Part shown: in pieces, positions 212 through 964 of the stretch
How positions within the stretch are numbered: position 1 is the stretch's first letter
How the letters are laid out: every line of letters begins with the position of its first letter
Assembly (NCBI GenBank): GCA_964360855.1
Contig: CAYHXV010000003.1
Location: 1-62,808 of the forward strand
DNA length: 62,808 bases
Direction: 5' to 3'
Source: an uncultured Candidatus Saccharibacteria bacterium
GTDB taxonomy: Bacteria; Patescibacteriota; Minisyncoccia; Phycocordibacterales; Phycocordibacteraceae
Notes under the pieces: model-generated
Seen by the model: only the letters and a program-made list of their open reading frames with translations
Told to the model about the DNA's origin: nothing
Database searches by the model: none
Program-made: the position numbers and the translations under genes

Positions 212-901
212 ATGAAGTCAGTTGAACGAGAGCGTGCGCTGGAAATGCGTATCAAACACAAAATGGGATACGGGGCGATAGCAAAGGAACTAAGAGTGGC
301 AAAGAGTACGTTGTCACGCTGGCTTGAAGATCACCCTCTTTCAGACGATCGAATACTAGAATTACGAAGAGAGTCTTGGGGTCGGGGCGAGGCAAAACGA
401 GAGCAATTCCGTAAAACGATGCGGGCAAAGCGAGATGCGCGCGACGAGTTGGTCTATTTGAAGCAAAAGAAAAAGCTGTCCCGCATTTCTGAACAAGCCA
501 CCTATGTTGCTGGACTCATGCTCTATGCTGCAGAGGGAGACAAGAAGAGTCGAGCTGAAATTGCGTTCGCAAATACAGATGCGGAGATGGTGTACTTTTT
601 TGCTCAGTGGCTCACGCGATTCCTTCACATACCACAGACAAAATTAAGAGCGCAACTACATTTGTATGAGGACATGGACTTACTGAAGGAGGAGGAGTAT
701 TGGCGGAGAGCGCTCAGAATGGAAAAGAGTCAGCTTGTGAAAAGTCAGGTTCGCCCACTGCGACCCGGGAGTTTTACATATCGTGAGTCATTTAGGCATG
801 GAACGTGTAAATTGTATGTTGGCGGCGTCGCACAGAAAACTGAGCTCATGTTGTCTATTCGGGCTTTCTTTGATACATATAAGAAACACACGCAAGTGTA
901 G
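212..901 (+). CDS. N-terminal HTH plus LAGLIDADG-like domain protein (229 aa); stop codon overlaps tRNA-Ile
   Basis: HTH-like MGYGAIAKELRVAKSTLSRW; LAGLIDADG-like helix YVAGLMLYAAEG followed by IAFANTDAEMV; extended -10 TGgTACTGT ends 6 nt before the ATG. Confidence 0.65.
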   Translation: MKSVERERALEMRIKHKMGYGAIAKELRVAKSTLSRWLEDHPLSDDRILELRRESWGRGEAKREQFRKTMRAKRDARDELVYLKQKKKLSRISEQATYVAGLMLYAAEGDKKSRAEIAFANTDAEMVYFFAQWLTRFLHIPQTKLRAQLHLYEDMDLLKEEEYWRRALRMEKSQLVKSQVRPLRPGSFTYRESFRHGTCKLYVGGVAQKTELMLSIRAFFDTYKKHTQV

Positions 902-964
902 CTCAGTTGGTAGAGCATCCGCCTGATACGCGGACGGTCGAAGGTTCGAGTCCTTCCACTTGCA
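892..964 (+). tRNA. tRNA-Ile (anticodon GAU); CCA not encoded
   Basis: Acceptor stem GCAAGTG/CACTTGC; D-arm GCTC-AGTTGGTA-GAGC; anticodon arm TCCGC-CTGATAC-GCGGA; T-arm GAAGG-TTCGAGT-CCTTC; discriminator A964 followed by CAA. Confidence 0.96.

Follow-up and report, generated by a model that had tools for sequence, protein, structure and literature searches.

This study concerns an open reading frame (ORF) at positions 212–901, + strand, of a 62,808-nt stretch of DNA from an uncultured Candidatus Saccharibacteria bacterium (GenBank assembly GCA_964360855.1, contig CAYHXV010000003.1, forward strand; the whole stretch is called the window below). The ORF starts with ATG, encodes a protein of 229 aa and ends inside the tRNA-Ile(GAU) gene that follows it. 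We propose, with a probability of roughly 55%, that it is a homing endonuclease gene directed at tRNA genes, free-standing and of a divergent LAGLIDADG-like type. A selfish homing gene would predict, all together, the fixed site, target specificity, presence/absence polymorphism, copy-number variation, remnants, footprint and dimeric fold that are described here.

A family of genes in front of tRNA genes

Close homologues of the protein number more than 300 and share 55–72% identity and a constant length of ~229 aa. An exhaustive search that accepted E values up to 0.001 extended the family to 2,431 clusters at 50% identity. The single protein alone gave no match in the search for related loci, and an alignment was needed as the query. 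In their sources the homologues are annotated as ‘hypothetical’, ‘XRE-family regulator’ or ‘transposase-like’.

Linkage to tRNA genes was assessed in 80 loci from GTDB species-representative genomes and in a context-blind sample of 60 further copies from the same taxonomic family as the window. The pooled sample yielded 135 near-full-length ORFs. For about 128 of these, a tRNA gene on the same strand starts somewhere between ~44 nt after and 22 nt before the ORF’s stop codon. The original prediction, which had been made from the window’s sequence alone, had raised the question of tRNA adjacency among homologues, and the association proved stronger than guessed. Several apparent exceptions were resolved: the tRNA-Asn at L046 contains a 231-nt group I intron, the tRNA-Tyr at L081 contains a 195-nt intron, the tRNA-Ile at L038 is masked by N and the tRNA-Gly at L073 is cut by the contig end. 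There is also a clade of five in which three members (L134, L137 and L139) lie divergently, ~87 nt upstream of tRNA-Val(TAC). The upstream sequence of the other two (L149 and L150) is too short to tell.

Protein clades map almost one-to-one onto tRNA species. On a FastTree phylogeny of the 135 proteins, the 16 tRNA labels need 18 changes, where the minimum is 15 and the mean for shuffled labels is 86. Specific clades exist for Ile(GAT), Gly(GCC), Gly(TCC), Pro(CGG), Arg(TCG), Phe, Met, Val and others. The Ile(GAT) clade is sister to the Ile(TAT) clade, and the hosts of the Pro(CGG) clade are Omnitrophota and Planctomycetota. A paralogue in the window’s own genome (29% identical; G000:C25, 425–1147, − strand) has a stop codon that coincides with positions 8–10 of tRNA-Gly(GCC).

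Some loci show additional features around the tRNA. At L081 (3367–3648), tRNA-Tyr(GTA) with its intron starts at the stop codon of the family ORF. Two tandem repeats of ~160 nt separate the family ORF from the intron-containing tRNA-Asn(GTT) at L046 (3670–4291); each repeat opens with promoter-like TTAATATAAT, together with a degenerate version of the tRNA 5′ end, and closes with its complement. Between one and four direct copies of the 3′ part of the tRNA (nt ~49–72) occur 150–700 nt downstream at L051, L054, L055, L056 and L067 (tRNA-Gly GCC) and at L009 (tRNA-Ile), where they resemble the attachment-site repeats of small integrated elements. At L002 (1176–2459; G000:C25, − strand), the longest call for a diaminopimelate-decarboxylase-like ORF starts inside tRNA-Arg(TCG). 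We rejected this overlap as an ORF-calling artefact, the true start probably being an internal ATG (‘MKEIPF...’).

The distribution of the gene is patchy. At least one copy was found in 58 of 101 genomes of the window’s taxonomic family, with copy numbers ranging from 0 to 9. Phylum-wide, 32 of 151 genomes have one to five copies, several of which are split or interrupted by in-frame stops. Of 63 genus members sampled, 6 had the Ile(GAT) type, and a second sample added one further genome (G106). These counts bear out the patchy presence in close relatives that the original prediction had anticipated. That prediction had offered two identities for the gene, a tRNA-hitchhiking selfish element or a domesticated regulator of tRNA transcription, and tRNA linkage together with patchiness favours the selfish element.

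The site itself is conserved. The gene order from tRNA-Ile(GAU) to the downstream gene is kept throughout the genus, and 23 relatives in the genus have the tRNA-Ile without the ORF, with an ordinary promoter (TGGAAG, 17 nt, TAGTAT) 8–30 nt upstream. By MurD identity, the genomes nearest to the window are G134 and G127 (72%, both outside the 63-member genus sample used for the ORF counts), and the ORF-bearing G020 and G106 stand at 63%. Since the ORF is absent from the tRNA-Ile locus of G127 (L084) but present in the more distant G020 and G106, its presence is scattered. At L084 (G127:C4:1–3109), tRNA-Ile(GAU) is opposite in strand to the conserved downstream gene and has neither an ORF nor an obvious promoter. 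This arrangement amounts to a local inversion at the same site, in the window’s closest relative by neighbouring genes.

Decay products were found as well. All that is left in G050 is a remnant consisting of the last 29 codons of the ORF, located directly after a terminator and running into tRNA-Ile. At L048, a 28-nt 5′ leftover of tRNA-Pro lies 24 nt before the ORF’s ATG and an intact tRNA-Pro follows the ORF; from its sequence, the leftover looks like the footprint of an insertion into an older tRNA gene. Such leftovers are not a general feature, as only ~7% of 121 loci scored above shuffles. The top match of that scan, at L029, turned out to be a neighbouring tRNA, and L048 is the only true leftover. 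In the window, the tRNA 5′ end seemed to resemble the start of the ORF, but the resemblance did not reach significance. Presence/absence polymorphism at a fixed, conserved site, accompanied by decay products, is the pattern expected of a homing gene, and it is the pattern seen here. The gene is under very strong purifying selection, with a ratio of nonsynonymous to synonymous substitution rates (dN/dS) of 0.02–0.05 among orthologues.

In the genus, all nine ORF-bearing tRNA-Ile alleles have a ‘type B’ anticodon stem (TCCGC/GCGGA), vs 3 of 23 ORF-less alleles, a comparison that is confounded by relatedness. The stem of the nine differs by three compensated pairs from that of 19 of the 23 ORF-less alleles. 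The tRNA-Pro leftover at L048 ends at tRNA nt 28. The stem variant and the end of this leftover hint at recognition or cleavage near the anticodon arm, with relatedness as the confounder. The window’s own genome also has an ORF-less tRNA-Ile(UAU) (G000:C11:5040–5113), and a dedicated clade of the family precedes tRNA-Ile(UAU) in relatives. The sequence that precedes the tRNA-Ile(UAU) of this genome showed no remnant of an Ile(TAT)-type ORF.

Domains and predicted fold of the protein

The original prediction described the product as a helix-turn-helix (HTH) protein with a LAGLIDADG-like domain. The HTH was confirmed: an N-terminal HTH of transposase, resolvase or homeodomain type was the sole match in Pfam, NCBIfam and PHROGs, and HTH_23 was detected in 53 of 73 relatives. 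AlphaFold2 modeling of the full-length protein, using an alignment of 34 orthologues, gave a mean predicted local distance difference test score (pLDDT) of 86.5. In this model the HTH (residues 1–42, positions 212–337, placed by the profile matches as well) is followed by one long helix (residues 45–88, positions 344–475) and a compact C-terminal domain (C-domain; residues 91–227, positions 482–892). When the C-domain was modeled alone with 73 diverse relatives aligned, the pLDDT rose to 94.5. The resulting model has the α-β-β-α-β-β-α core of the LAGLIDADG fold.

We compared the C-domain model with 48,161 PDB representatives by exhaustive structural alignment. LAGLIDADG proteins made up 12 of the top 16 chains, and this enrichment, rather than any single score, is our case for the fold, given that the scores of these matches (Z 5.0–7.6, with 75–92 residues aligned at a root-mean-square deviation (rmsd) of ~3–4 Å) fall below 8, where the tool warns that a match can reflect a common arrangement. 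The best match was an intein endonuclease (7qsu, Z 7.6). Further matches were I-DmoI (Z 6.8), WhiA (8dy9_I, Z 6.7), E-DreI (Z 6.5) and I-Vdi141I (Z 6.2), with I-Tsp061I, PI-PfuI, I-MsoI and I-CreI at lower Z; two other WhiA structures, 3hyj and 3hyi, were also among the best. The full-length model gave the same LAGLIDADG-dominated matches.

Residues E108, G109, N121 and W164 are invariant in the 73 relatives, whose identity ranges from 20 to 70%, and G101, L104, Y105, K111 and G197 are nearly so. E108 and G109 close the first helix of the C-domain (‘GLMLYAAEGDK’). In LAGLIDADG enzymes, the catalytic acid is located at the end of the motif helix, a position that E108 matches. The original prediction had singled out the Glu of AAEG as possibly catalytic. 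Its invariance and its place at the end of the predicted dimer helix agree with that suggestion, and we regard E108 (GAG codon, 533–535, + strand) as a candidate catalytic and metal-binding residue.

Prediction of a C-domain homodimer gave an ipSAE of 0.77, against 0.00 for the best control, a score that may partly mirror likeness to solved LAGLIDADG dimers, or the model’s memory of them, and that we read as likeness and not as proof of binding. A mark of 0.77 was attained by 20 of 30 solved homodimers and by 1 of 23 solved single chains. The runs shared at least 96% of their contacts, and the pLDDT of the partner was at least 86. In the predicted interface (residues 88–109), helix 94–108 packs against its twin with two-fold symmetry and residue 108 contacts the partner chain. 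As modeled, then, the C-domain is LAGLIDADG-like at the level of fold, without membership of a LAGLIDADG family at the level of sequence. The original prediction thus stands for the fold but not for sequence-level family membership.

The tRNA overlap and the flanks of the ORF

The closing codons of the ORF are ACG (890–892), CAA (893–895), GTG (896–898) and TAG (899–901). The tRNA-Ile(GAU) gene (+ strand) spans 892–964 according to Rfam (76.2 bits) and 892–965 according to ARAGORN. It encodes no CCA, has the type B anticodon stem and was detected as a single copy in this 94%-complete assembly. The stretch common to both genes is therefore 892–901, which corresponds to tRNA nt 1–10, and the stop codon is U8-A9-G10. 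Codon positions and both tRNA searches agree that the original prediction described this overlap correctly.

Within the family, the overlap is a minority arrangement. The stop codon is at tRNA position 8 in 22 of the 135 ORFs and anywhere within a tRNA in ~38 (~30%); the other ~70% stop 2–44 nt before the tRNA. The closest Ile subclade retains the overlap in 11 of its 13 members, and the overlap recurs independently in Gly, Pro, Phe, Met and Arg clades. Because most tRNAs offer no stop in that frame before the TAG at positions 8–10, a stop inside the tRNA is readily explained as a by-product. The same applies to Gly tRNAs, in which TAA or TAG at position 13 is the first stop met once the native stop is lost.

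The original prediction also stated that no canonical promoter lies between the ORF and the tRNA. This is true in that there is no intergenic space, but it misses a promoter-like element inside the 3′ end of the ORF (851–891, + strand). The element comprises a −35 hexamer (TTGTCT, 851–856), a 17-nt spacer and an extended −10 (TGaTACATA, 871–879) that ends 12 nt before the +1 of tRNA-Ile. The −10 hexamers of other tRNAs in this genome lie 8–13 nt before +1, so the geometry of 851–879 fits a tRNA promoter. In 13 close orthologues, synonymous-codon identity is ~0.40–0.44 gene-wide, 0.66 in codons 211–220 and 0.84 in codons 216–225, and these frozen codons (216–225) are upstream of the tRNA overlap. 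An exact 27-mer is common to 7 genome loci and 16 metagenome loci; the proteins encoded at these loci share just 62–72% identity.

Related loci have comparable elements. Since only the piece with the last 29 codons is left between the terminator and the tRNA in G050, it supplies the sole promoter-like element there. The TGA stop of the Ile(TAT) clade forms part of a TATGAT hexamer, and the ORFs of the Pro(CGG) clade have TTGGTT, 16 nt and TATAAT at the 3′ end. The ORF-less tRNA-Ile(UAU) of the window’s genome has the same TTTGC..-N17-TGTGATTCCAT promoter as ORF-bearing alleles, in near-identical form, which suggests that the ORFs of some clades may simply read across the native promoter. From these sequence comparisons, the element at 851–891 is probably the tRNA’s own promoter. 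The last ~15 codons of the ORF are probably dual-coding, in that they specify the C-terminus of the protein and contain a putative tRNA promoter. With this element inside the ORF, the tRNA is probably independent of co-transcription.

On the 5′ side, just 211 nt of the contig precede the ORF. A hairpin followed by UUUUGU (80–139, + strand; ΔG −51.1 kcal/mol, z −11 vs shuffles) is terminator-like and closes the upstream unit. Contig L193, which is from the same population and has a 100% identical ORF, places the 3′ end of the 16S rRNA 396 nt upstream of the ORF, and the order 16S ... ORF, tRNA-Ile is also found at the orthologous loci L004, L005, L016, L038, L195, L199 and L200. The ORF therefore sits in the 16S–tRNA-Ile spacer. 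A promoter-like region directly before the ORF (181–211, + strand) contains the −10-like hexamers TAGTAT (181–186) and TGGTATATG (190–198). A simple sigma-70 consensus scan of positions 1–1700 gave no canonical promoter site, and so the ORF promoter is proposed by comparison with orthologues, which have TGnTATAAT-like −10 elements ~7 nt 5′ of their ATG. There is no Shine-Dalgarno sequence directly 5′ of the ATG at 212, and the mRNA is probably leaderless or nearly leaderless. A simple terminator scan of the same 1,700 nt found no terminator between the ORF and tRNA-Ile.

The gene downstream of the tRNA (1000–1568, 179 aa) is likely leaderless too, with TATACT lying 9 nt upstream of the start codon (ATG, 1029) and without a Shine-Dalgarno sequence. 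The gene evolves fast, at 33–63% identity within the genus. The contigs of many relatives end just 5′ of this gene, which is consistent with the presence of an rRNA gene there.

Alternative readings and the proposed homing gene

The overlap had originally been read as an inbuilt limiter of expression: the ORF and tRNA-Ile would share one obligatory transcript, RNase P would remove the stop codon when it cuts at tRNA +1, and transfer-messenger RNA (tmRNA) would lead to tagging of the product of the resulting non-stop mRNA. This is physically possible at the locus, since RNase P RNA, tmRNA and SmpB are all encoded in the genome. With no terminator between the two genes, the ORF transcript would enter the tRNA and could lose its stop on RNase P cleavage. 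The overlap is real, it has persisted in the closest Ile subclade despite saturated synonymous divergence (dS), and it recurs independently in other clades, all of which would be expected of a selected limiter. However, an overlap present in only ~30% of the family cannot be the family’s conserved regulatory device, the ~70% majority ends before the tRNA, a clade with inverted orientation exists, and the TAG is merely the first stop in its frame. The promoter-like element, which is under nucleotide-level constraint, means that the tRNA need not derive from the ORF transcript. Obligate co-transcription with a non-stop mRNA is thus weakened by this element, by the frozen synonymous sites, by G050 and by the low frequency of overlap. 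An internal promoter or transcription start site was named beforehand as an observation that would speak against co-transcription, and the comparative data point to one at 851–879. We consider the limiter unlikely as a selected function; it is possibly a local side-effect and not a conserved design.

The main rival to a homing gene is a domesticated, non-cutting DNA-binding protein, analogous to WhiA, that acts as a local regulator of the adjacent tRNA or rRNA-spacer promoter. WhiA (DUF199) is a domesticated transcription factor in which two degenerate LAGLIDADG domains, without their catalytic residues, are combined with a C-terminal HTH; its distribution is broad and conserved. The match between protein clades and tRNA species would then reflect cis-acting regulators co-evolving with their operators, and the combination of an HTH with a LAGLIDADG-like domain does recall WhiA, which is a top fold match. 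The low dN/dS and constant length over saturated dS, the ameliorated composition and the location of the tRNA promoter-like element within the gene also point this way. We still consider a regulator rather unlikely, because the Ile type occurs in so few members of the genus, copy numbers vary from 0 to 9 among genomes of 0.6–0.8 Mb, close relatives do without the ORF at the same locus, and remnants and pseudogenes exist. The protein is also unlike WhiA in having one domain instead of two, an N-terminal instead of a C-terminal HTH and a patchy, multi-copy distribution, and the acidic residue that WhiA has lost is invariant here (E108). Binding to the transcript of the adjacent tRNA, by a protein that serves this tRNA as a chaperone, maturase or processing helper, would account for the clade–tRNA specificity equally well. 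Some LAGLIDADG proteins are intron maturases, and some members of this family precede tRNAs with group I or other introns (L046 and L081). Such an RNA-level role is nonetheless very improbable, given that most partner tRNAs are intron-free, that close relatives use the same tRNAs while lacking the protein and that the HTH is of the transposase/resolvase DNA-binding type.

Several observations also weigh against our own preference, the homing endonuclease. dS is saturated between all orthologues, the GC content at third codon positions (GC3) of the ORF equals that of its neighbours, and the ORF block exceeds its flanks only modestly in nucleotide identity (80% vs 72–74%). Divergent hosts yielded no near-identical copies, and pairwise locus comparisons and composition gave no demonstration of recent horizontal transfer. 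Judged by these comparisons, the gene is an old, strongly constrained resident of its lineage, and strong purifying selection with constant length would also fit a host-useful protein. Sequence searches gave no support for a LAGLIDADG family: the window’s protein had no LAGLIDADG match in Pfam at E values up to 10, none appeared among the 25 of 46 Pfam families listed for the 73 relatives, phmmer and a profile search against PDB sequences returned nothing relevant and no LAGLIDADG protein, and hhalign against the PF00961 alignment gave a probability of 0.3%. Foldseek searches of PDB with the full-length and domain models returned no LAGLIDADG match either (OmpA/MotB-like matches, with TM ~0.35 and rmsd 7–9 Å, were treated as noise). 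The best structural Z, 7.6, is within the range where a common arrangement is possible. The ORF-bearing allele still contains the whole tRNA and a promoter in native-like geometry, and a homing endonuclease would have to spare this allele from self-cleavage. Nuclease activity and mobility are predicted properties of the family.

If the ORF is nevertheless a homing endonuclease gene, the niche of its family would be the 5′ flank or leader of tRNA genes. The protein would dimerise through the LAGLIDADG-like helix, pairing two copies of E108, and the dimer together with the N-terminal HTH would recognise the DNA of one particular tRNA gene. ORF-less alleles would be cut, and repair from an ORF-bearing allele would copy the gene in. 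Residence in the 5′ flank would do next to no harm, because the tRNA would keep, or receive, a promoter encoded in the last ~15 codons of the ORF and because RNase P would trim any read-through transcript at tRNA +1. Transcription of the ORF would start from a promoter just 3′ of the strong terminator in the 16S–tRNA-Ile spacer, probably giving a leaderless mRNA. The stop inside the tRNA would be a by-product of compaction, which may incidentally make processed transcripts non-stop.

The predicted fold places the protein closest to homodimeric, single-motif enzymes such as I-CreI (1af5), I-MsoI (1m5x) and I-CeuI (2ex5) and to the related I-DmoI, I-Vdi141I, I-Tsp061I and intein endonucleases. 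These share the core helix and β-sheet platform, and the cores overlap at Z 4.8–7.6 over ~85 residues at ~3 Å. The predicted two-fold packing of a helix on its twin and the invariant acidic residue followed by Gly resemble LAGLIDADG homodimers, and the patchy, selfish-looking lifestyle resembles that of LAGLIDADG homing endonucleases in general. Unlike them, the present protein has no detectable sequence relationship to the known enzymes, an extra helix between strands 3 and 4 of the core, an added N-terminal HTH and an added 45-residue helix. Its gene is free-standing in front of tRNA genes and lies outside introns and inteins.

T4 SegB, a free-standing GIY-YIG homing endonuclease encoded in the T4 tRNA gene cluster, has a site that includes the tRNA T-psi-C motif and drives the inheritance of itself and of neighbouring tRNA genes (PMC2330249). 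By analogy, it serves as a precedent: its gene stands free, and the enzyme recognises sequence within tRNA genes. The present family differs in being LAGLIDADG-like and cellular, while SegB is a phage gene without strict 5′ abutment to or overlap with one tRNA, and without a large family of tRNA-specific clades. LAGLIDADG_1 (PF00961) ORFs from rRNA insertions of Candidate Phyla Radiation bacteria share both their host organisms and their rRNA neighbourhood with the present gene; the study that describes them makes no mention of tRNA (PMC11270868). They belong to a different, readily recognised family and are located inside rRNA insertions, not at tRNA 5′ ends. Such PF00961 ORFs are also present at four of our loci (L004:1644–2224, L016:1136–2685, L195 and L200), just 3′ of the 16S gene and upstream of the tRNA-linked gene. 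They overlap matches to Rfam group-II-D1D4-1 (44–47 bits), which suggests that the 16S 3′ region there holds pieces of group II-like introns carrying LAGLIDADG ORFs.

A literature search found no paper describing this family or its tRNA arrangement. The family is unnamed, and its core domain has no Pfam model. On balance we lean towards a family of very divergent, LAGLIDADG-like homing endonucleases that occupies a new niche. In ultra-small bacteria, Omnitrophota and Planctomycetota, one uncharacterised family would then have colonised the sites in front of essential tRNA genes, and the homing endonucleases would gain a new genomic niche as well as a very divergent branch. The window would supply a tangible example of dual coding, in which bases that encode the C-terminus of a protein also serve as a tRNA promoter. 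The result also bears on annotation, since genes of this family now carry the labels given above.

More tentatively, and at somewhat less than even odds, the 5′ leader or flank of tRNA genes may be a third harbour, alongside self-splicing introns and inteins, in which homing genes stay phenotypically silent. RNase P trimming and the promoter in the last codons would take the role that splicing has in the other two, and the family would be a natural library of tRNA-gene-specific nucleases. It would be a source of site-specific DNA binders or cutters for tRNA genes. If this is true, such a harbour could explain the spread of endonuclease-less tRNA introns and of tRNA alleles in Patescibacteria.

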